Part shown: in pieces, positions 5,926 through 33,172 of the stretch | Position numbering within the stretch: position 1 is the stretch's first letter | Layout of the letters: each line of letters opens with the position of its first letter | Assembly: GCF_003790525.1 (NCBI RefSeq) | Contig: NZ_CP033635.1 | DNA length: 64,000 bases | Strand: one strand, 5' to 3' | From: Escherichia coli | GTDB lineage: Bacteria; Pseudomonadota; Gammaproteobacteria; Enterobacterales; Enterobacteriaceae | The notes under the pieces: generated by a model | Told to the model about the DNA's origin: nothing | Database searches by the model: none | Seen by the model: the letters and a program-made list of their open reading frames with translations, nothing else | Translations under genes and position numbers: made by a program

Positions 5926-7092
5926 TCAAACTGATGGACGCAAACGAACGCGTAACCAGCTGTATCCAATTACCGCCGAAGAGATAGAACCGACCAGGAT
6001 ACCGAGTTTCGCCCAGTTAATCAGTTCTGGATCTACGCTACCAAAGGCAAGGCTGGCAATAAAGATAGACATAGTAAAACCGATACCGCATAGGATCCCC
6101 ACCGCCATAATTTGCTGATAAGTCGTTCCCTCAGGCAGATGCGCCAGTTTCAAACGCAGCGCCAACCAGCAGAACAGACTAATACCCAGTGGCTTGCCAA
6201 TCAGCAAACCGGCGATGATCCCTAATGGCAGAATGGAGGTCAGGCCATCCAGCGTCACGCCTTGCAGAGATACCCCCGCATTGGCAAACGCAAACAACGG
6301 CAAAATCAGATATGCCACCCACGGATGCAAAACATGCTCCAGACGTTTAGCCGGAGAGCGCCCATGCTTCTCTTTTAACGGAATAAAGAAGCCGACAATG
6401 ACGCCAGCCAGCGTTGCATGGACACCTGATTTCAACACCGCTGTCCACAGTACCACGCCAACCAGAATATAAACGCCCGTGCGACGAACACCACAGATAT
6501 TCAGTACCGCGAGTACGGCAATCGCTACTGCCGCAACGCCGAGAGACGCCATCGATAAGTCATTAGTGTAGAACAATGCGATGATAATGATGGCCCCAAG
6601 ATCGTCGATAATAGCCAGAGCCATCAAAAAGATCTTCAGCGCTAACGGAACACGACTTCCCAACAGCGCCAGCACACCAAGTGCAAAGGCAATGTCAGTA
6701 GCCGCCGGGATCGCCCACCCTTCGCGGGTAATCGGATCGGCATAGTTAAAGGCCAGATAGAGCAATGCCGGCACAATCATCCCACCAATAGCGGCGATAA
6801 CTGGAAATGCGGCCTGGCGTAAGCTGGCTAGCGATCCTTGCATCAGTTCACGTTTAACTTCCAGACCGACTAACAGGAAAAATACCGCCATCAGCGCGTC
6901 ATTTATCCATAACAGCATGTTTTTGTTGATTTCGAGTGAACCAACCCGGAGCTGAACCGGCGTCTCCAGAAAGTCGTGATACCATCCACTGGTTGCGCCG
7001 CTATTGGCCATAATCATCGCCAGGATAGCGGCAATGATAAGAATAATGCCTCCCGAGGCATCACTGCTAAAGAATCGATGCAGATGTTTCAC
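5926..7092 (-). CDS. nhaA: Na+/H+ antiporter NhaA
   Basis: 388-aa polytopic membrane protein [51 protein letters not shown]... Confidence 0.95.
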
Positions 7093-7343
7093 TTTTTATT
7101 TCTCTTTCAGGTGAATAGATCGTTTTTACTATTTTACCCCGCACGAATCATCGTTAAAATCAGATTATAGTGTAGGAATAATTCGTTTTTTACGAACCAT
7201 TGAAGGATTTGTGCCATCAGCGATGAGATGATTTTTTGACGGCTGTAAGCGCTCACGAGTGACCCTAAGCCCTGATAATCATAGCTTAAGGTGAGGATTT
7301 CTGAGGGATTAATTAGGAAAAGTAATAATAAAATCGCACTGTG

Positions 7344-8588
7344 CTATAGCTGTTTATTCCAGAGATGCTTGAAAATATCTAATGTGGAGACAACATTGGC
7401 AGGCGACATTCGGTTTAATGAGGATAGAAAGGGATGAGACTCCAGGAAGTTGATAAAACGAGTCGCGCTTGCTAACGTCGAATACCGCATTTCATTTGCT
7501 TTCTTGTTTCCTGTAAGGTTACAAACAGCCATTGAATAATCACGGGCGGAAAATGTACGCCAAACATTATTTCTCACGCCACCACTCAAAAACAACCGCG
7601 GCGGCGTATCATAATGAGTCGTTTTCTCGCCGCGTTCTTTCACAAATGAAATATGGCACCGGCCTTGATGAATATGCTGTAAATTAGCCATCAGACAACC
7701 ACCTAATATAAAGCACTCGTGATCAAGGTAGTGTTGAATATTTATAGAATATGCTTCAGTCAGTGCTCTAACCAGTTCAAAATGGCGATACGCCGGAAGA
7801 ACCGGTTTCACCAACATCCCCGGATCGTTTTGATGTAATATCGCCCGACCATAATCAATATCAAATAAGGTATCACGCCGCATAGTAAGTAACTCCTTGC
7901 GTTGTACGTGATGCGCCAGTGTACCTGGAGACAAACGCTCTTCATAACTTGATGCATATTGATAATGCGACTCTACCGCTGATGGAGAATAATTTGTTGA
8001 AATAGCGACGACTCTACCGCTTTGTTCTTCTGCGGTAACAAGGCTATAAAGATAGTTATTACTACCGTTAAACTTTACGCGAAAAGCGCGGGTAGATAGA
8101 GAAATATCAGAAGCAGAAGAGTATTGGTAACTTTCTTTATAGTTTACTTCCCGGGCTAGTTTCATCAACTCACGGTTAAGCCCTGTGCTATTAAGAAGTA
8201 ATAATTTACGGATATCTGCAAGTGAAGCGCCTTGATCAATCATCAATGCTAAATGTGTTCTTCGCGGCGTTGTATTTACATGATCCAGAGTGATAAAAGT
8301 TCTGGAACAATGATGACAATACATTCTCCTCTGCCCCTGAGCTGAATAGCCATACTTTTTCAGAGATGTGCTTCCGCAAGCTGAACATTGTGGAACCAAC
8401 CCTCTCCATGAATGATTAACACGATTACGATAAATATTAAGAGATCGTTCAGATATCACAGGAAACAAGTAACCGCATTCCCGACATAAAATATTTTTTC
8501 CTTGTGCAATATAATCCTGGCTATTCAACAACCCCAGGTTTTTGCATCCTGGTGTTTTGCAACAATCAACATTTACGTTGGTAAACAT
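7344..8588 (-). CDS. Uncharacterised Cys-rich protein with two predicted CxxC...CxxC zinc-ribbon modules (InsA-like), ~414 aa
   Basis: ORF track starts at 8624, but the ATG at 8588 (MFTNVNV) has AGGGAG 6 nt upstream; motifs CKTPGC...CRECG and CSACGSTSLKKYGYSAQGQRRMYCHHCSRTF; C-terminal ~300 aa with no motif I recognise. Confidence 0.7.
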   Translation of the reverse strand: MFTNVNVDCCKTPGCKNLGLLNSQDYIAQGKNILCRECGYLFPVISERSLNIYRNRVNHSWRGLVPQCSACGSTSLKKYGYSAQGQRRMYCHHCSRTFITLDHVNTTPRRTHLALMIDQGASLADIRKLLLLNSTGLNRELMKLAREVNYKESYQYSSASDISLSTRAFRVKFNGSNNYLYSLVTAEEQSGRVVAISTNYSPSAVESHYQYASSYEERLSPGTLAHHVQRKELLTMRRDTLFDIDYGRAILHQNDPGMLVKPVLPAYRHFELVRALTEAYSINIQHYLDHECFILGGCLMANLQHIHQGRCHISFVKERGEKTTHYDTPPRLFLSGGVRNNVWRTFSARDYSMAVCNLTGNKKANEMRYSTLASATRFINFLESHPFLSSLNRMSPANVVSTLDIFKHLWNKQL

Positions 8589-8628
8589 ATTCACTCCCTG
8601 CGAATACCCGGATATTATCGTCATATGT

Positions 8629-8669
8629 CAAAGAAAAGAACCTGACTCAATGTGTAACATTGAATCAGG
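8629..8669 (-). terminator. Candidate intrinsic terminator/attenuator between the sulfatase gene and the Cys-rich gene
   Basis: 12-bp inverted repeat cctgactcaatg(tgtaa)cattgaatcagg; on the minus-strand RNA the stem is complete with one G-U pair and is followed by UUCUUUUCUUU. Confidence 0.45.
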
Positions 8670-8717
8670 CGGGCATGGCCCTGAAAGGCATACATTACAT
8701 TTATTATGGTTATCAGA

Positions 8718-10211
8718 TTAGCCCCAGGTTACCGCTTCCGGTTTATCACCTCTGGCTTTCATTAATGAATCATTATCAATATCGGCTTTATACTTTAAGA
8801 ACTTACCATACATTTGTTTTTCAATGTCTGGATTTTTACCTATCTGATTAATGGTCTCAAAACGATCGGTTTTGAGGTTGTATAGGTACTTTGGCTTATT
8901 GTTACGATCGATGATCATTTTCCAGTCACCATCACGTATCGCCCATTCGTCGGTTGGATCATCCTGGAATGGCATGTCAATTCCGAAGATTAATGGCTTT
9001 TCACGTTTTAGCGCTTTGTTCTCAAGGACAGGAACCAACGATTCGCCATCAAAAGTCCGGTCCGTCGGTAATTTGAAGTTCATCATTTTCGCCAGCGTAG
9101 GCATCCAGTCCAGACCATAAACAGGCGTATCTGAAACCATTCCCTTTGGAAGATGCTTTCCGTATTTAATAATCGCCGGAACACGGATGCCACCTTCCCA
9201 GAGATTATCCTTGCGACCACGTAATCCATCAGTTTCCCCTGCCAAATTCAGTTCATAAACTTTGCGCGCTTCACGCGTTACTGGTCCGTTATCACTGGTA
9301 AAAATAACGATGGTGTTATCTTCTTCACCCATCGCTTTGATTTTATCCAGTACTTTTCCAACCTGAGCATCCAGATAACTGATGTTGGCATAATATTCTC
9401 CTGTACCACGCCAGGGTTTATCCGCCCAGTCGCCATAAAATAAATCAGGATGCTGCTTCTGATAGTCGCTCATATATTGTGAGTACATGTCGAGGTATTT
9501 TTTGGGCGAAGCCAGGGGACTGTGCACTTCGGTAAAAGCGACATAAAGGAAGAAAGGCTTACTGTCCTTTTTGTTATCCAACCAGTTGACGACTTCCGAA
9601 CTGACATACTCACCACTCATTTTATCGGAACGTGGTGTGGGTTGCCCGTTACGCAACCAGCCCGTTGGATAGACCATGCCAAAACGGGGACGCTCCTTCG
9701 CATTATCCAGAGTAGCGTCGGTAACAAAACCCGCCGTATTAACCAGTGAGTAATCAAAGCCCATATCTTTTGCCTGCGGCTGATCGGTGCGATCGCCGCC
9801 TGCATTCAGATGCAGCTTACCCATCATGGCCGTGTCGTACCCTTGCGCTTTGAGTAGATTAGCAATCGTGAGTTCATTACGCCCTAATGCCACATCTTTT
9901 CCCGTTGGGATCCATGAGCGTATGCCGGTACGAAATGGCATCCGCCCTGTTAATAGTCCCGCCCGTGAAGGAGAACTTAAGGGGGCAGGTGCATAATAGT
10001 CGGTAAATTTGACGCCTTCCTGGGCAAGCCTGTCTATATTGGGCGTTTTAACGATCTGATGTCCATATGTTGCCAAATCACCATAGCCTAAATCATCCGC
10101 CATAATGATGACTAAATTGGGTTGTTTAGTTTCGGCGGCTACGGCTGGATTAAAAGCATTCCCTGTGCAAACTGCAAGGCCGATCAAACTGGCCATTAAT
10201 GTTTTCTGCAT
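8718..10211 (-). CDS. Secreted sulfatase (arylsulfatase family), Ser-type active-site motif SSPSR, ~497 aa
   Basis: Sulfatase signature PNLVIIMADDLGYGDL, active-site block PLSSPSRAGLLTGR (Ser at the formylglycine position), second signature GYDTAMMGKLH; N-terminal signal peptide MQKTLMASLIGLAVCTGNA; start chosen at ATG 10211 with AGGGA RBS (track ORF extends to 10247). Confidence 0.85.
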   Translation of the reverse strand: MQKTLMASLIGLAVCTGNAFNPAVAAETKQPNLVIIMADDLGYGDLATYGHQIVKTPNIDRLAQEGVKFTDYYAPAPLSSPSRAGLLTGRMPFRTGIRSWIPTGKDVALGRNELTIANLLKAQGYDTAMMGKLHLNAGGDRTDQPQAKDMGFDYSLVNTAGFVTDATLDNAKERPRFGMVYPTGWLRNGQPTPRSDKMSGEYVSSEVVNWLDNKKDSKPFFLYVAFTEVHSPLASPKKYLDMYSQYMSDYQKQHPDLFYGDWADKPWRGTGEYYANISYLDAQVGKVLDKIKAMGEEDNTIVIFTSDNGPVTREARKVYELNLAGETDGLRGRKDNLWEGGIRVPAIIKYGKHLPKGMVSDTPVYGLDWMPTLAKMMNFKLPTDRTFDGESLVPVLENKALKREKPLIFGIDMPFQDDPTDEWAIRDGDWKMIIDRNNKPKYLYNLKTDRFETINQIGKNPDIEKQMYGKFLKYKADIDNDSLMKARGDKPEAVTWG

Positions 10212-10230
10212 AATTATTCCCTGATGAAAA

Positions 10231-10992
10231 TTAGAAATCATAACCAAGCATATAAATCATTTGATCGCCAAAACCATCGTAGCCCAACTTATTATCGAAA
10301 TAACGCCACGTCACACTGGCTTTCCAGCGAGGATAGAACTTCCAGGCCACTGTTAAACCGCCATTTAGCCCATTCCGACCAAATTGTTGTTCCGCATAGG
10401 CATCATTTCTGTCCAGTTCTATTTCATTCCAGTTAGATAAAACAAATTTTTCGTCAAATAACGTAAAAGGTAATACTGCTGTCCAGCCAACAACATAACC
10501 ATTCCAGCCATTTGTTTGTCCATATTTGGCTGAGACGTAGTCTCCAGATTGATTATGTAATCCAATATACGGTTTAAAAAACCCCCATGAACCATTCCAG
10601 CCGAGGTAGCCCAAACCATAAAACATATCAAGATCGTCACCCCATGAGTTATCCCATTGACCATAGATCTTGCCAAAGAAAGTCATATTGGAGTCAAAGA
10701 GTCTGACATGTGTCATAGCAGAAACGGTATGATTACGCCCCGCTACGGCATGGTTAAGCACATTGCTTTCATAAAATGAGTAAAACTCGGCTTCTTTAAA
10801 ATTCACACCAAAGTCTGCAGTCACTTTCCATACTTCACCACGATGAGTGTTAACGAAGCCACTATTCCAGTCAGCATAACCTGCATTTATTGAGCCAAAG
10901 GAACCTTTATATTCTAATGAAGAATATGCAGGAAGGTGATAGAAAATCGTTGTCAGGGCACACGCAATAAGAAGCCGTCTTTTGGCAGACAT
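10231..10992 (-). CDS. Tsx/OmpK-like outer-membrane channel protein, 253 aa
   Basis: Signal peptide MSAKRRLLIACALTTIFYHLPAYS, Trp/Tyr/Gly-rich beta-barrel-like sequence, C-terminal Phe; WDNSWGDDLD block resembles Tsx; GGAGAG RBS; ends 19 bp upstream of the sulfatase start. Confidence 0.7.
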   Translation of the reverse strand: MSAKRRLLIACALTTIFYHLPAYSSLEYKGSFGSINAGYADWNSGFVNTHRGEVWKVTADFGVNFKEAEFYSFYESNVLNHAVAGRNHTVSAMTHVRLFDSNMTFFGKIYGQWDNSWGDDLDMFYGLGYLGWNGSWGFFKPYIGLHNQSGDYVSAKYGQTNGWNGYVVGWTAVLPFTLFDEKFVLSNWNEIELDRNDAYAEQQFGRNGLNGGLTVAWKFYPRWKASVTWRYFDNKLGYDGFGDQMIYMLGYDF

Positions 10993-11499
10993 ATAATATG
11001 CTCTCCATTCATTTTTTTTATGGTTCCATAGAAATCAATACATCAGATAATTCATTTTGATTAAGAACGACTCAGAAAGTATATTTAAAGGTGAATGGCA
11101 AAGCGTGATGGAGATCGCAGATTACTTTTACCCCCGGGTGTGGAGGTATCGTGTTTCAAAAAGTGTGTCGATTTTAAATATCACTCATTGATTTATAAAC
11201 ATTTTTCCTCACAAAAAGAAAATTCAATTCTGTACAAGAATATTTTGTATCTTCTATTACTTTCTCCAGTAATAACTCACCATTCAGGCATAACTTAAAC
11301 CTCTTGTTCATAATCTCAACTTTTGTAAATGAAAACGCACATAAGAGTTAAAATAAACAATGTACTAAAGATTGATTACGCAAAAATGCGAGGCGTCTTC
11401 AGGATTAGAATCGATAAAACAGAATGGGTTAAAGAGAGCGATATAATAGCGGCGGGTGCTTGAGGCTGTCTGTCTCAGGCATTAGCTGAACGGCAGATA

Positions 11500-11560
11500 G
11501 AGAAAAGCCCCGAGTGATATTTTACCATCAACCCGAGGCCCCCTATATGCAGAACACATG
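11500..11560 (-). ncRNA. sokC: sokC antisense RNA of the hokC/mokC type I toxin-antitoxin locus (approximate position)
   Basis: Placed by analogy with K-12, where sokC is antisense to the mokC start; not independently verified from the sequence. Confidence 0.35.
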
Positions 11561-11756
11561 TAGAGTGCCTCTTACTGACCGTAAGGTCAAGGAGAAGAGA
11601 GCAATGAAGCAGCATAAGGCGATGATTGTCGCCCTGATCGTCATCTGTATCACCGCCGTAGTGGCGGCGCTGGTAACGAGAAAAGACCTCTGTGAGGTTC
11701 ACATCCGAACTGGCCAGACGGAGGTTGCTGTTTTCACGGCTTACGAATCCGAGTAA
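11547..11756 (+). CDS. mokC: mokC, overlapping reading frame that couples hokC translation (69 aa)
   Basis: In-frame upstream ATG giving MQNTCRVPLTDRKVKEKRA fused to the HokC sequence. Confidence 0.6.
   Translation: MQNTCRVPLTDRKVKEKRAMKQHKAMIVALIVICITAVVAALVTRKDLCEVHIRTGQTEVAVFTAYESE
11604..11756 (+). CDS. hokC: Hok/Gef-family small membrane toxin HokC (50 aa)
   Basis: Translation MKQHKAMIVALIVICITAVVAALVTRKDLCEVHIRTGQTEVAVFTAYESE; 3' hairpin ggcgggg(agtgat)ccccgcc at 11764-11783. Confidence 0.85.
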   Translation: MKQHKAMIVALIVICITAVVAALVTRKDLCEVHIRTGQTEVAVFTAYESE

Positions 11757-11859
11757 GAGCAACGGCGGGGAGTGATCCCCGCCACTTTACAGGTGCTCGC
11801 ATATCTTCAACGCACCCTATTTTTACCCTGGCCTGCCCACGGGCAGGCTTTTGGGGAGG

Positions 11860-12990
11860 TTAGCGAGTCAGGTCGTCAAAAAACTTCTTCACACCATCAA
11901 AGAAGCTCTTTGAACGCGGGCTGTTGTGCTCGCCGGTTGGGCCACCGAAGCTTTCCTGCAGCTCTTGCAGCAGCTGTTTCTGCTTCTCGTTCAGACCTAC
12001 CGGTGTTTCGACGACAACGCGGCACAGCAAGTCCCCTTGCGCACCGCCGCGAACAGACTTGACGCCTTTACCACGCATACGGAACAGCTTACCGGTCTGG
12101 GTTTCGCCAGGCACTTTCAGTTTGACGCGACCATCAAGGGTCGGTACTTCGATTTCGCCACCCAGCGCTGCCATCGCGAAGTTGATCGGGACTTCGCAAT
12201 ACAGGTTGTTACCTTCACGCTCGAAAATCGGGTGCTGTTTAACCTGAACCTGAACGTACAGATCGCCTGCCGGTGCGCCATGCTCGCCCGCTTCACCTTC
12301 GCCCGCAAGACGGATGCGGTCTCCAGTGTCCACCCCTGCCGGGATTTTAACGGACAGCGTTTTGCTGCGCTCAACACGACCATGACCATGACATTTGTTG
12401 CACGGATCTTTGATCAGCGTACCGCGGCCCTGACAGTGTGGACAGGTCTGCTGTACAGCGAAGAAGCCCTGGCGCATCTGCACCTGACCAGAACCATGAC
12501 AGGTCGGACAGGTCTGCGGCTGTGTACCTGGTTTTGCACCGCTACCGTGGCAAACGTCACACTCTTCCAGAGTCGGAATGCGGATCTCTTTGGTCACGCC
12601 ACGTACAGCTTCTTCGAGGGTGAGCTCCATGTTATAGCGTAAATCAGCACCGCGCGCCGCACGTTGACGACCACGTCCGCCGCCAAAAATATCGCCGAAA
12701 ACGTCACCAAAAATATCGCTGAAGTCTGCGCCGCCGCCAAAACCGCCGCCGCCCATGCCGCCTTGCTCAAACGCAGCATGACCATACTGATCGTATGCCG
12801 CACGTTTTTGCGAGTCGGTCAGAACTTCATAAGCTTCCTTGATCTCTTTAAATTTCGCCTCGGCCTCTTTGTCACCCTGGTTACGGTCCGGGTGGTATTT
12901 CATGGCCAGGCGTTTGTAGGCCTTTTTGATTTCACGCTCTTCCGCTGTTTTGGAAACGCCTAAAATCTCGTAATAATCTTGCTTAGCCAT
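11860..12990 (-). CDS. dnaJ: Chaperone DnaJ (Hsp40)
   Basis: Translation from [47 protein letters not shown]...; 376 aa; Gly-rich and CxxCxGxG zinc-finger repeats. Confidence 0.96.
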
Positions 12991-13078
12991 CTTTTTTAAA
13001 TTGCCCCTAGATGAATGCACGGGCGGAGAGGAAATTCCCCTTCGCCCGTGTCAGTATAATTACCCGTTTATAGGGCGA

Positions 13079-14995
13079 TTATTTTTTGTCTTTGACTTCT
13101 TCAAATTCAGCGTCGACAACATCGTCATCTTTCGCGTTGTTTGCAGAAGCATCAGCACCGGCAGTCTGCTGCTGGGCATGTTGCTGCTGGGCGATTTCCA
13201 TCAGTTTCTGGGAAACCTGTGCCAGTTCCTGCATTTTCGCTTCGATAGCGGCTTTGTCTTCACCTTTCAGAGCAGTTTCCAGTGCAGTCAGTGCAGACTC
13301 GATAGCAGTTTTGTCGTCAGCCGGCAGTTTGTCGCCTGCTTCTTCAACCTGCTTACGGGTGCTGTGCAGCAGATGGTCGCCCTGGTTGCGAGTCTGTACC
13401 AGCTCTTCAAACTTACGGTCAGCTTCGGCGTTAGCTTCTGCGTCGCGTACCATTTTCTGGATTTCATCTTCGTTCAGACCAGAAGAAGCCTTGATGGTGA
13501 TCTTCTGCTCTTTACCGCTGTTTTTATCTTTCGCGGAAACGTGCAGGATACCGTCAGCATCGATATCGAAGGTAACTTCGATCTGCGGCATGCCGCGCGG
13601 TGCCGGGTTGATACCATCCAGGTTGAACTGACCCAGAGATTTGTTATCAGCCGCACGTTTACGTTCACCCTGCAGCACGTGGATGGTTACCGCAGACTGG
13701 TTGTCTTCAGCGGTAGAGAACACCTGGCTGTGCTTGGTCGGGATAGTGGTGTTTTTCGCGATCAGCGTCGTCATCACACCGCCCATGGTTTCGATACCCA
13801 GAGACAGCGGGGTAACGTCCAGCAGCAGTACGTCTTTCACGTCACCAGTCAGAACACCACCCTGAACAGCAGCACCGATTGCTACAGCTTCGTCCGGGTT
13901 AACGTCTTTACGCGGCTCTTTACCAAAGAATTCAGCAACTTTCTTCTGAACCATTGGCATACGAGTCTGACCACCAACGAGGATAACGTCGTCGATATCA
14001 GATACGGACAGGCCAGCGTCCTGCAGTGCAACTTTCAGCGGCTCAATGGAACGGTTTACCAGATCTTCAACCAGGCTTTCCAGTTTCGCACGAGTCACTT
14101 TGATGTTCATGTGTTTCGGACCGGTCGCGTCTGCAGTGATGTACGGCAGGTTAACGTCGGTCTGCTGAGCGGAAGACAGTTCGATTTTCGCTTTTTCTGC
14201 CGCTTCTTTCAGGCGCTGCATTGCCAGCGGATCGTTGCGCAGGTCAATGCCCTGATCTTTCTTGAATTCTTCAACCAGGTAGTTGATCAGACGGCTGTCG
14301 AAGTCTTCACCCCCCAGGTGGGTATCACCGTTGGTTGCCAGAACTTCGAAGGTTTTTTCGCCGTCAACTTCGTCGATTTCGATAATAGAAATATCGAAAG
14401 TACCACCACCCAGGTCATAAACCGCGATAGTACGGTTGCCAGTACCTTTGTCCAGACCGTAAGCCAGCGCAGCTGCGGTCGGTTCGTTGATGATACGTTT
14501 TACTTCCAGACCAGCGATACGGCCTGCGTCTTTGGTTGCCTGACGCTGAGCATCGTTAAAGTATGCCGGTACGGTGATAACAGCTTCAGTTACCGGTTCA
14601 CCCAGGTAATCTTCAGCGGTTTTCTTCATTTTTTTCAGCACTTCAGCAGAGATCTGCGGCGGTGCCATTTTCTGGCCTTTAACTTCGACCCATGCGTCGC
14701 CGTTATCAGCAGCAATAATTTTGAACGGCATGATGGAAACATCACGCTGTACTTCTTCGTCCTGGAAGCGGCGGCCAATCAGGCGTTTAATCGCAAACAG
14801 GGTGTTTTGCGGGTTCGTCACTGCCTGACGTTTAGCCGGCTGACCAACCAGAGTTTCACCATCCTGGGTATAGGCAATGATAGAAGGCGTGGTGCGATCG
14901 CCTTCGGCGTTCTCCAGTACACGAGGAGTGGTGCCATCCATAATCGCTACACAAGAGTTGGTAGTACCCAGGTCGATACCAATTATTTTACCCAT
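13079..14995 (-). CDS. dnaK: Chaperone DnaK (Hsp70)
   Basis: 638-aa translation [43 protein letters not shown]... Confidence 0.97.
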
Positions 14996-15370: not shown

Positions 15371-15775
15371 ATGAAATCCGTTTTTACGCTTTCCGCCAGC
15401 CTGGCGATTAGCCTGCTGCTGTGCTGCACGGCGCAGGCAAACGACCATAAAATCCTCGGCGTCATTGCAATGCCGCGAAACGAAACCAACGATCTGGCGC
15501 TGAAACTTCCTGTTTGTCGCATTGTTAAACGCATTCAACTCACTGCCGACCATGGCGATTTACAGTTAAGTGGTGCATCGGTTTATTTCAAAGCCGCCCG
15601 TAGCGCCAGTCAGAGCCTGAATATTCCTTCAGAAATAAAAGAAGGGCAAACCACTGACTGGATCAACATTAACAGCGATAACGACAATAAACGCTGCGTC
15701 TCAAAAATCACCTTTTCCGGCCATACGGTGAACTCATCGGATATGGCCACGCTGAAAATTATCGGCGACGACTAA
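15371..15775 (+). CDS. yaaI: Secreted protein YaaI (DUF2541), 134 aa
   Basis: Translation [30 protein letters not shown]... with signal peptide; track ORF begins 14 codons upstream. Confidence 0.85.
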
Positions 15776-15799
15776 CGCCAGAATATAGAAGCAAAAAAA

Positions 15800-16513
15800 A
15801 TGAATGTTAATTACCTGAATGATTCAGATCTGGATTTTCTCCAGCATTGTAGTGAGGAACAATTGGCAAATTTCGCCCGGCTGCTCACCCATAATGAAAA
15901 AGGCAAAACTCGCCTCTCCAGCGTACTGATGCGCAACGAACTGTTTAAATCGATGGAAGGACATCCCGAGCAACACCGCCGCAACTGGCAGCTGATTGCC
16001 GGAGAATTACAACATTTTGGTGGCGATAGTATCGCCAACAAACTGCGCGGACACGGTAAATTGTATCGGGCCATTTTGCTCGATGTTTCAAAACGATTGA
16101 AGCTGAAAGCCGACAAAGAGATGTCTACGTTTGAAATTGAGCAACAGTTACTGGAACAATTTCTGCGTAATACCTGGAAGAAAATGGACGAGGAACATAA
16201 GCAGGAGTTTCTGCACGCGGTCGATGCCAGGGTGAATGAGCTGGAAGAGCTGCTGCCGCTGCTGATGAAAGACAAATTATTGGCAAAAGGCGTGTCGCAT
16301 TTGCTTTCCAGCCAATTGACCCGCATTTTACGCACCCACGCAGCAATGAGCGTACTTGGGCATGGTTTGCTGCGCGGCGCGGGGCTGGGAGGCCCTGTAG
16401 GCGCGGCACTAAATGGGGTTAAAGCGGTCAGCGGCAGCGCCTATCGCGTGACGATTCCAGCCGTACTGCAAATCGCCTGCCTGCGCCGGATGGTTAGTGC
16501 CACTCAGGTCTGA
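15800..16513 (+). CDS. yaaW: Uncharacterised protein YaaW (237 aa)
   Basis: 237-aa ORF MNVNYLNDSDLDFLQHCSEEQLANFARLLTHNEKGKTRL...; position and length match K-12 yaaW. Confidence 0.85.
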   Translation: MNVNYLNDSDLDFLQHCSEEQLANFARLLTHNEKGKTRLSSVLMRNELFKSMEGHPEQHRRNWQLIAGELQHFGGDSIANKLRGHGKLYRAILLDVSKRLKLKADKEMSTFEIEQQLLEQFLRNTWKKMDEEHKQEFLHAVDARVNELEELLPLLMKDKLLAKGVSHLLSSQLTRILRTHAAMSVLGHGLLRGAGLGGPVGAALNGVKAVSGSAYRVTIPAVLQIACLRRMVSATQV

Positions 16514-16661
16514 TACCGGAAACCGGGGAAAATTTTCATTTTCCCTTCAAAAGATCGTAGACACTGCCCCACTGGCTGATTATTATGCCGCGCCCTGAAA
16601 ACACTACAGTTATTCAGGGAAATTATTTCACCATTCATTCGATGATGATTTTTGAGGAATT

Positions 16662-17228
16662 ATGGGCAACACTAAGTTGGCTAATCCGGCACCGCTGGGC
16701 CTGATGGGCTTCGGCATGACCACCATTCTGCTTAACCTGCACAACGTGGGTTATTTCGCTCTTGACGGTATTATTCTTGCAATGGGCATTTTCTACGGCG
16801 GCATCGCGCAAATTTTTGCTGGTCTGCTGGAGTACAAAAAAGGCAACACTTTCGGTTTAACCGCATTCACCTCTTACGGTTCTTTCTGGCTGACGCTGGT
16901 TGCGATTCTGCTGATGCCGAAACTGGGTCTGACCGATGCGCCAAATGCACAGTTCCTTGGTGTCTACCTGGGTCTGTGGGGCGTATTTACGCTGTTTATG
17001 TTCTTCGGCACGCTGAAAGGCGCACGCGTTCTGCAATTCGTTTTCTTTAGCCTGACCGTGCTGTTTGCCCTGCTGGCGATCGGTAACATTGTCGGTAATG
17101 CCGCGATCATCCACTTTGCCGGCTGGATTGGTCTGATCTGCGGTGCCAGCGCAATCTATCTGGCGATGGGTGAAGTGCTGAACGAGCAGTTTGGTCGCAC
17201 CGTTCTGCCGATTGGTGAATCGCACTAA
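16662..17228 (+). CDS. satP: Succinate-acetate/proton symporter SatP (YaaH)
   Basis: 188-aa membrane protein MGNTKLANPAPLGLMGFGMTTILLNLHNVGYF... Confidence 0.93.
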   Translation: MGNTKLANPAPLGLMGFGMTTILLNLHNVGYFALDGIILAMGIFYGGIAQIFAGLLEYKKGNTFGLTAFTSYGSFWLTLVAILLMPKLGLTDAPNAQFLGVYLGLWGVFTLFMFFGTLKGARVLQFVFFSLTVLFALLAIGNIVGNAAIIHFAGWIGLICGASAIYLAMGEVLNEQFGRTVLPIGESH

Positions 17229-32698: not shown

Positions 32699-33172
32699 TT
32701 ATTGCCGCCACGGCATGACAGGAACCGCGCTAATCGCGTTTTTCGGCGAACCTTCTACAACTTTGTCGGAGTAAGCCAGATAAGCGAGCGCGTTGCGTTT
32801 AGCGTCATAAAAGCGCACGACCTGTAACGACTTAAAGACCAGGGACGTACGTTTTTTGAATACTACCTCGCCCTGAGCTTTGCCGTTTTTAATACGATCC
32901 GACAGTTCAATCGGCCCGACTTGCTGACAAGAAATGGCCGCATCGGAGGTATCTTCCGCCAGACCCAATCCCCCTTTAATACCACCGGTTTTCGCCCGGC
33001 TCACATAACAGGTGACATTTTTCACATCGGGATCATCAAAGGCTTCCACAACAATTTTGTGATCCGGGCCGATCATTTTAAATACGGTGTCGACCGAACC
33101 AATCTCTTCTGCATGAGCCAATGGCCCCAGCATTATCAGGCTTAAAGACAGGATCAAATGCTTGTATTTCAT
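32699..33172 (-). CDS. creA: Periplasmic protein CreA
   Basis: 157 aa with signal peptide [21 protein letters not shown]. Confidence 0.9.

Follow-up and report, generated by a model that had tools for sequence, protein, structure and literature searches.

The stretch of DNA analysed here (the window, 64,000 nucleotides of Escherichia coli sequence read on one strand) very probably carries, at about 11420-11852, an uninterrupted chromosomal hokC/mokC/sokC type I toxin-antitoxin locus, in which sequence comparison places all the design elements of a hok/sok system in the correct order. This arrangement, free of the insertion sequence IS186, is the ordinary form of hokC in E. coli; it is real, already known and not new, having been in the literature since 1999 according to later papers that cite Pedersen and Gerdes. 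The minor points that are new are that the hokC coding sequence is almost invariant across the species, that the allele carried here, shared by 35% of genomes, is without a YUNR motif in the predicted SokC-target loop, and that IS186 enters the 3' hairpin of the locus in either orientation, depending on the strain.

The window is 99.99% identical to E. coli SMS-3-5 across 12.7 kb, and the SMS-3-5 annotation gives the gene context as dnaK-dnaJ, hokC and, further on, nhaA, with hokC convergent with dnaJ and situated between dnaKJ and nhaAR. A search of the 64-kb window that included tblastn found no second hok gene. One tblastn match at 32771-32848 (E = 0.005) was rejected as spurious, as it covers the C-terminal half of Hok only and lies within a longer open stretch of frame; sub-threshold Rfam matches to sR17, rpsL_pseudo and tpke11 on the plus strand were set aside as chance. 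An extra segment of 4.05 kb, from which K-12 is free, occupies 7330-11380 between hokC and nhaA. The preliminary description had bounded the locus at 11500-11860, and the 5' bound requires correction: the -10 box lies at 11442-47 and the tac element, with the mRNA 5' end, near 11454. The features of the locus are as follows.

11419-11447, plus strand: putative hokC/mokC promoter, with a perfect -10 TATAAT at 11442-47 and a weak -35 near 11419-24, placed by R1-type alignment.
11454-11820, plus strand: predicted full-length hokC mRNA of about 367 nt, its 3' end placed by homology.
11454-11465, plus strand: tac, at the 5' end (GGGUGCUUGAGG), the same as in K-12.
11497-11555, minus strand: sokC antisense RNA gene, 59 nt with its 5' end at 11555, mapped from K-12 b4413 (57/59 nt identical).
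11505-11511, plus strand: ucb, the anti-Shine-Dalgarno box AAGCCCC, which fits the R1 model (PMC9841398).
11535-11571, plus strand: predicted SokC-target hairpin, holding the mokC GAGG (11535-38), the AUG (11547-49) and a 7-nt loop, CAGAACA (11550-56).
11547-11756, plus strand: mokC frame, 69 aa, with L2Q relative to K-12.
11562-11590, minus strand: sokC promoter, with -35 TTGACC (11590-85), a 17-nt spacer and -10 CACTCT (11567-62), identical to K-12.
11604-11756, plus strand: hokC (gef) toxin gene, 50 aa, 100% identical to K-12 HokC and represented in SMS-3-5 by RefSeq WP_000809168.1.
11764-11783, plus strand: 3' stem-loop with a perfect 8-bp GC-rich stem (GGCGGGGA-GTGA-TCCCCGCC), aligning with R1 nt 342-359.
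11784-11804, plus strand: 3' tail; in the full-length mRNA its predicted partner is 11545-66, which spans the mokC start and the SokC target.
11805-11817, plus strand: fbi (fold-back inhibition) element CUUCAACGCACCC, predicted to pair with tac over 12 bp and to leave one C bulged; identical to K-12.
11830-11852, plus strand: GC-rich hairpin followed by a T run between the convergent hokC and dnaJ, a candidate terminator.
11860-12990, minus strand: dnaJ, the convergent neighbour, with its stop codon at 11860-11862.

Both reading frames are intact, as had been proposed. The hokC frame lies inside the mokC frame in the same phase and with a common stop codon, and the mokC/HokC product matches Pfam PF01848 HOK_GEF with 84.2 bits (cutoff 22; E = 4.6e-24). 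All six aligned hok loci have the mok ATG unchanged, and alignment and folding find the Shine-Dalgarno sequences of mokC and hokC intact. In the RefSeq annotation here the 50-aa HokC product is named 'MokC', and the mokC frame and sokC are omitted.

The promoters of hokC and sokC and the ends of their transcripts were placed by homology only. A consensus promoter and terminator scan of the locus detected neither promoter, and its only matches, one promoter-like site on the minus strand and one weak terminator-like site within hokC, occur at chance frequency. The Rfam model RF01794 (sok/CssrC leader) aligns over its full length, positions 1-157, to 11454-11606, scoring 116.9 bits where the gathering score is 59. 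SokC is predicted to fold into a free 5' tail and a terminator-like hairpin with a U run (-23.1 kcal/mol, z = -3.9). The region of plasmid R1 aligned with the sokC promoter reads TTGCGC-17-TATCCT, which we take to be the R1 sok promoter, and the sokC -10 CACTCT is poor compared with the -10 hexamers read in the aligned plasmid homologues (TAATCT, TATCCT). In the comparison with the K-12 and R1 loci, the sokC promoter, the mokC ATG, the 3' stem-loop, tac and fbi all proved intact.

Minimum free energy folding, whose structures are predictions, was applied to the full-length and truncated forms of the RNA. The full-length RNA (11454-11822) folds in silico at -151.8 kcal/mol (z = -6.1), with tac (11454-65) pairing with 11805-17, the 3' tail forming helices 11545-50:11799-804, 11555-57:11793-95 and 11559-66:11784-91, and part of ucb (11507-09) pairing with the mokC Shine-Dalgarno region (11537-39). 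The truncated RNA (11454-11787) is predicted to refold, so that tac pairs with the whole of ucb (11505-11) and the hairpin at 11535-71 forms; this hairpin has a predicted energy of -15.8 kcal/mol (z = -5.3) and its loop (11550-56) is complementary to the SokC 5' end. All five hokC-type loci compared preserve the tac-fbi pairing, and the R1 type carries one double, compensatory change of U-A to C-G. The predicted folds match the switch between full-length and truncated mRNA of plasmid R1. The R1 hok mRNA occurs in forms of 398 and 361 nt. Alignment with the window locus sets fbi at 389-396 and the hairpin at 342-359 of R1, and by homology the truncated, active form would end here just past the hairpin, near 11785, at about 332 nt.

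A hairpin with a perfect 8-bp stem and a GTGA loop had been noted at 11764-11783, and its position is correct. It does not mark the end of the locus, as fbi (11805-17) lies between it and dnaJ. We rejected it as the hokC terminator: it is followed by no T run, it corresponds to the terminal stem-loop (342-359) of the truncated R1 mRNA, and fbi lies downstream of it. The order of hairpin and dnaJ stop codon also agrees with what had been described, with the distance of about 100 bp in need of adjustment: 76 nt separate the hairpin from the dnaJ stop codon and 103 nt the hokC stop codon from the dnaJ stop codon. In R1, the 3' stem-loop shields the truncated hok mRNA from 3' exonucleases, and the mechanism of hok together with its requirement for this stem-loop has been described (PMC9841398).

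Homology to plasmid R1 hok/sok and the folding predictions together suggest the following course of events. A weak constitutive promoter would give rise to the full-length mRNA of about 367 nt, in which the 5' tac (11454-65) would pair with the 3' fbi (11805-17) and the 3' tail (11784-11804) would mask the mokC start and the SokC target; therefore the full-length RNA would be neither translated nor bound by SokC. Slow 3' exonucleolytic trimming would halt at the stem-loop at 11764-83, and with fbi lost, tac would pair with the anti-Shine-Dalgarno box (11505-11), freeing the mokC Shine-Dalgarno sequence and AUG and allowing the SokC-target hairpin (11535-71) to form. SokC (59 nt, minus strand, 11555 to 11497) would then bind via its free 5' end, leading to RNase III cleavage. 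Upon a drop in SokC, mokC would be translated and, coupled to it, hokC, whose Shine-Dalgarno sequence and AUG would otherwise be paired with 11726-50; the 50-aa HokC would depolarise the inner membrane.

The window contains no IS186 sequence anywhere in its 64 kb and is contiguous over 11690-11890, which bears out the observation that no IS186 separates hokC from dnaJ. In K-12 MG1655, IS186A (15387-16731, 1345 bp) is located between dnaJ and hokC, 19 nt past the hokC stop codon. The preliminary description was right to place this element downstream of hokC in K-12, and its position can be made more exact: the insertion is within the 3' hairpin, with a 10-bp target duplication, GGAGTGATCC, equivalent to 11769-78 of the window. 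IS186A thus splits the hairpin and parts the mRNA from the tail and fbi, and the K-12 locus is called disrupted because the insertion splits the protective stem-loop and takes the tail and fbi out of the transcript.

Across 5426 complete E. coli genomes, the IS-free arrangement was found in 3814 (70%), among them ATCC 25922 and those strains of O157:H7, O145 and O111 that were sampled. Hence the idea that the IS-free state is specific to this strain or lineage was rejected, and by parsimony this form is the ancestral state. The remaining 30% or so of the genomes (about 1611) are interrupted between hokC and dnaJ, and IS186 lies in the hairpin in the opposite orientation in two loci (L016 and L017). 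Junction queries matched at most 1274 times in the K-12 orientation and at most 1378 times in the opposite one; these are upper bounds whose sum exceeds about 1611, partly because other hok-family genes beside IS186 or IS421 match at about 88% identity, and the shared terminal repeats of IS186 are suspected of inflating the counts as well.

The closest counterpart of the locus is the orthologous hokC (gef)/mokC/sokC (sof) locus of K-12 MG1655 (b4412, b0018, b4413), which has the same dnaJ-adjacent position. HokC is 100% identical, the hokC side matches at 396 of 399 nt, and there is no difference in tac, fbi or the sokC promoter. K-12 differs in having IS186A in the 3' stem-loop, giving the order dnaJ, IS186A, hokC/mokC, sokC, nhaA, in having MokC L2 in place of Q2 and the target loop CUGAACA in place of CAGAACA, and in being without the 4.05-kb insert at 7330-11380. 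A 1999 paper by Pedersen and Gerdes, reportedly Mol Microbiol 32:1090, is said to describe the IS-free hokC of ECOR24 as having regulatory elements of the R1 type. The secondary accounts give that locus a transcript of about 330 nt, and the predicted truncated form here is about 332 nt; the ECOR24 locus differs in having been tested, with no post-segregational killing and no rifampicin activation according to the same accounts.

Plasmid R1/IncF hok/mok/sok (parB) shares the architecture of tac, ucb, mok Shine-Dalgarno sequence and ATG, Sok target, hok Shine-Dalgarno sequence, hok, 3' stem-loop and fbi, and the change of conformation predicted on passing from the full-length to the truncated mRNA is common to both. 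Alignment with R1-type and plasmid hok loci spans the whole mRNA, and homology stops just past fbi. R1 differs in that its Hok is only about 41% identical to HokC over 44 aa, its leader is longer, its sok -10 (TATCCT) is better than that of sokC here and its target loop contains YUNR (CUAG); it is plasmid-borne and its post-segregational killing is proven. The closest non-orthologous relatives are plasmid-borne loci annotated as 'hokD', on IncY and small plasmids (pJIE250_3, pZ1322PEC0161-3), with 75-79% nucleotide identity from tac to fbi and with tac and fbi nearly identical to those of the window. Some of these have a leader longer by 20 nt, the -10 equivalent to that of sokC is TAATCT, and three of the four keep YUNR in the loop (CUCG, CUAA, CUUA).

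Only three positions on the hokC side differ from K-12, namely 11422, 11541 and 11551. At 11422 the window carries the majority allele, G, and the A of K-12 is the outlier. The A at 11551 changes the loop from CUGAACA, which contains YUNR, to CAGAACA (CAGA), so that the motif is absent from the predicted SokC-target loop (11550-56) of this allele. Across the genomes, A occurs at 11551 in 1901 and T in 3476, giving A a share of about 35%. In R1, YUNR in the target loop accelerates Sok binding; the motif is a binding accelerator there and not strictly family-defining.

It had been suggested that the absence of IS186 may leave this strain with a functional hok/sok system. That suggestion holds insofar as every regulatory element that could be checked is intact, and fails insofar as the IS-free state was thought special, as 3814 of 5426 genomes share it. 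The accompanying statement that IS186 inactivates the K-12 locus agrees with the insertion and with the literature, and the contrast of a locus dead in K-12 and alive here is doubtful: in MG1655, CRISPRi knockdown of sokC is strongly deleterious, an effect that is greater in poor media, and sokC is a fitness gene in Tn-seq. These two effects imply that production of HokC is possible even where IS186 disrupts the locus, and the CRISPRi screen suggests that K-12 hokC is still toxic upon SokC knockdown. The IS-free hokC of ECOR24, on the other hand, showed neither post-segregational killing nor rifampicin activation (Pedersen and Gerdes 1999, in the account given by a bioRxiv survey), and an intact sequence is therefore no proof of R1-like killing.

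The locus could be intact in sequence and physiologically inert, being transcribed and processed with too little HokC made to kill or arrest the cell, in which case it would be a silent relic and the absence of IS186 would have no phenotype. We regard this as unlikely, albeit an alternative of some weight. It is in keeping with the weak hokC -35 region and the failure of the consensus scan to find a promoter, with the target loop lacking YUNR, and with the tolerance of IS186 disruption in about 30% of genomes. A relic would be expected to drift, whereas the 175-nt block at 11583-11757, comprising the hokC Shine-Dalgarno and coding sequence, shows 99% identity or more in 5388 of 5415 genomes while its flanks vary by 3-9% across about 5400 genomes; at the level of sequence, this near-invariance argues that the locus is being maintained. 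The harm caused by sokC knockdown in MG1655 and the Tn-seq result also speak against inertness, as do the toxicity of HokC when expressed (bioRxiv survey) and the finding that R1 hok, present once on the chromosome, kills without Sok (PMC9841398). The conservation might instead reflect another, overlapping role, such as termination or 3' stabilisation of the dnaKJ transcript, or action of SokC in trans. The hairpin and T run at 11830-52 between the convergent genes would suit such a role, and the conservation does span RNA-structured sequence, but it is the coding sequence of hokC that forms the invariant block and the stretch proximal to dnaJ varies, about 30% of genomes tolerate an IS186 separating hokC from dnaJ, and we found no evidence for trans targets of SokC; this explanation is accordingly highly improbable.

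As a discovery, the uninterrupted hokC/mokC/sokC locus matters little, the IS-free form being the normal state in E. coli. As a reference for chromosomal hok loci it is K-12 that is atypical, and if hokC has a physiological role, in persistence, stress response or phage defence, IS-free strains would be the right material in which to study it, guided by the elements mapped in this analysis (tac, ucb, target hairpin, 3' stem-loop, fbi and the IS186 target). The T-to-A change at 11551, through loss of YUNR and L2Q, could measurably reduce the rate at which SokC binds and alter the HokC-SokC balance. Taken with the near-invariance of hokC and the repeated insertion of IS186 in both orientations, it raises the speculative and rather improbable prospect that hokC is actively selected, tunable and repeatedly switched off in some lineages, and is not an inert relic. 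If this were true, chromosomal hokC would be unlike the inert relic suggested by the post-segregational killing tests of 1999.

The window carries a complete hokC/mokC/sokC type I toxin-antitoxin locus, and no IS186 sequence was found anywhere in its 64 kb. A 701-nt query around the locus was 100% identical to SMS-3-5 (NC_010498.1), and SMS-3-5 and the window differed by a single mismatch across 12.7 kb around hokC. As the preliminary description had stated, the mokC and hokC frames are intact. The mokC product matches Pfam HOK_GEF with 84.2 bits (cutoff 22). Despite its name, the Rfam 'sok/CssrC' model represents the sense-strand hok leader; it gave a full-length match at 11454-11606 (116.9 bits; gathering score 59). 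RefSeq/PGAP names the 50-aa HokC product 'toxin MokC' (11604-11756; NC_010498.1), and leaves both the 69-aa mokC frame and sokC unannotated in SMS-3-5 and other genomes sampled. An Rfam match to the sRNA tpke11 lies in the dnaK-dnaJ spacer (12991-13068, minus strand; 69.6 bits, gathering score 43).

Features of the hokC region and differences from K-12 (window coordinates)
5926-7092, minus strand: nhaA
7330-11380: 4.05-kb insert (zinc-finger protein, sulfatase, OmpK/Tsx-like porin)
7344-8588, minus strand: protein with 'IS1/IS1595 N-terminal zinc-binding domain', in the insert
8718-10211, minus strand: sulfatase, in the insert
10231-10992, minus strand: OmpK/Tsx-like porin, in the insert
about 11420-11852, plus strand: hokC locus
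11422: difference from K-12, weak -35 region
11541: difference from K-12, leader and SokC
11547-11756, plus strand: mokC frame, intact, 69 aa
11551: difference from K-12, mokC codon 2 (L in K-12, Q in the window), also within SokC
11590-11562, minus strand: sokC promoter TTGACC-17-CACTCT, identical to K-12
11604-11756, plus strand: hokC frame, intact, 50 aa
76 nt from hairpin to dnaJ stop: 3' tail, fbi, U-rich tract, further hairpin and T run (11830-11852)
11860-12990, minus strand: dnaJ
13079-14995, minus strand: dnaK

The stem-loop at 11764-11783 (GGCGGGGA-GTGA-TCCCCGCC; hereafter the hairpin) is real. It had been described as followed directly by the dnaJ stop with no IS186 between them; IS186 is indeed absent, but the 76 nt in between hold further elements of the locus. 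The hairpin was therefore ruled out as the locus end, since the 3' tail, the fold-back inhibition element (fbi), a U-rich tract and a second hairpin lie beyond it. The locus as first described (11500-11860) is confirmed, its bounds corrected to about 11420-11852.

In the K-12 reference MG1655 the annotated order is dnaJ, IS186A (15387-16731), hokC/mokC (16751-16960, complement), sokC (16952-17010) and nhaA, so that the preliminary description was right about an IS186 copy downstream of hokC in K-12, between dnaJ and hokC. The insertion point falls within the hairpin itself, with junctions GGCGGGGAGTGATCC/CATAAGCG on the hokC side and CGCTTATG/GGAGTGATCCCCGCC on the dnaJ side, and from these sequences the 10-bp target duplication corresponds to 11769-11778. 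The site, G4-N6-C4, matches the reported target consensus of IS186. The window and K-12 agree at 396 of 399 nt on the hokC side; HokC, the sokC promoter, fbi and the 5' element tac show no difference between SMS-3-5 and K-12. Among ten sampled genomes K-12 stands apart from the others at 11422 and 11541, and 11551 is polymorphic. The hokC Tyr47 codon TAC (11742-11744), in a UACG context, corresponds to the site of tyrosine-to-cysteine A-to-I (TadA) editing reported for K-12 hokC mRNA (about 9% edited). Between hokC and nhaA the window has the 4.05-kb insert, whereas K-12 has only 125 nt; left of 11381, the window is matched by only some E. coli genomes.

The IS-free arrangement is common. Of 5426 complete E. 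coli genomes, 3814 (70%) matched a 201-nt query from the hokC 3' end into dnaJ without interruption, and in the rows sampled from the remainder the match broke at the hairpin; the 701-nt query was found in 3791 genomes, and O157:H7, O145 and O111 strains were among the IS-free genomes sampled. 2024CK-00474 and AR216.2b also carry IS186 in this 10-bp target, oriented opposite to the K-12 copy. Because both orientations occur at one target, the hairpin has been hit at least twice independently, and insertion there is recurrent. Parsimony makes the IS-free form the ancestral one and the K-12 state derived. Counts of IS186 junctions are upper bounds only, inflated by other hok-IS186 junctions; IS186/IS421 junctions also occur at other hok-family genes. 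The dog isolate AR216.2b is disrupted twice, by IS186 in the hairpin and IS150 in the 5' leader, owing to which its homology to the window starts only at 11529. HS-02 carries a 27-nt insert (CCCA-T17-GGGAGA) in the hairpin loop at the equivalent of 11776, within the IS186 target, which may have been left by an excision or may be an error of assembly.

Elements of the mRNA were placed by aligning the window with the R1-type locus and four plasmid hok loci. Many IncF plasmids, e.g. NC_004998.1, carry the R1 hok/sok sequence used here with 100% identity over 450 nt. It has fbi at nt 389-396 and a GC hairpin at nt 342-359; the R1 full-length mRNA is 398 nt, with fbi just inside, and the shortened form 361 nt, with the GC hairpin just inside. 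By plasmid homology, which stops at about 11818-11828, the hokC mRNA would start at about 11454 and, with fbi at 11805-11817, would be about 367 nt long when complete. The hairpin would be the terminal stem-loop of a truncated form of about 332 nt, in agreement with the ECOR24 hokC transcript of about 330 nt as cited in a later paper.

The full-length RNA (11454-11822) is predicted to fold with a minimum free energy of -151.8 kcal/mol (z = -6.1); here the 5' GGGUGCUUGAGG of tac pairs with CUUCAA-C-GCACCC of fbi (12 bp, one bulge), and the 3' tail 11784-11804 pairs with the mokC AUG and SokC-target region (11545-11566). The truncated RNA (11454-11787) is predicted to refold, with tac now paired with the anti-Shine-Dalgarno box ucb (11505-11511) and a hairpin at 11535-11571 displaying the mokC Shine-Dalgarno sequence, the AUG and a 7-nt loop (11550-11556) complementary to the SokC 5' end; SokC itself is predicted to have a free 5' tail followed by a terminator-like hairpin. 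In both forms the stretch 11591-11614, with the Shine-Dalgarno sequence and AUG of hokC, pairs with 11726-11750, as would suit a hokC whose translation is coupled to that of mokC. All five hokC-type loci keep the full tac-fbi pairing, with one U-A to C-G double change relative to the R1 type. The predicted switch would be the same as that of R1, in which mutations that weaken the stem-loop ending the truncated mRNA abolished toxicity (PMC9841398). Placement and folding alike are prediction and homology.

The preliminary description proposed that an IS-free strain may have a functional hokC. This is partly supported: the locus is complete and IS186-free, but the state is the common one, and an IS-free hokC locus has been known since 1999, when that of ECOR24 was characterised (Pedersen and Gerdes 1999, as summarised in later papers). 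According to these later papers, K-12 hokA, hokC and hokE are regarded as inactivated by insertion elements; the K-12 IS186 copy beyond gef/hokC is believed to interrupt fbi and upset normal processing, and the transcript is, in the same later summary, still produced and Sof/SokC-regulated. As summarised later, ECOR24 hokC, E. coli C hokA and K-12 hokB gave neither post-segregational killing nor rifampicin activation, and chromosomal hok systems were for this reason suggested to be inactive. Reports that MG1655 suffers strongly from CRISPRi knock-down of sokC, with a larger effect in minimal medium, that sokC is a fitness gene in Tn-seq and that HokC expression is toxic speak against a simple view of hokC as dead in K-12. 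Given the ECOR24 negatives against these data, the idea of a functional hokC is an old one, partly tested, with a mixed answer.

Three features of sequence variation may be new observations. The A at 11551 changes the predicted target loop from CUGAACA to CAGAACA with loss of the YUNR motif. R1 keeps such a motif at this place, as do three of the four plasmid homologues, and in R1 it was shown to be decisive for fast Sok binding; since 1901 genomes have A (MokC residue 2 Q) and 3476 have T (L), this is a common polymorphism and no strain-specific lesion. Two STEC genomes, 2013C-4081 and 8479, carry G11458A in tac with no compensating fbi change at 11813; comparable tac mutations in R1 are loss-of-function (PMC9841398). 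Third, 5388 of 5415 genomes match 11583-11757 (175 nt; hokC Shine-Dalgarno sequence and CDS) with an identity of 99% or more, and among ten diverse genomes this stretch contains no variable site, synonymous ones included, against variable positions of 6% in the leader and 9% in the 3' region and a 3% divergence of the window from K-12 over the 3' end of dnaJ. This near-invariance argues for strong nucleotide-level constraint on hokC and makes a relic in decay less likely.
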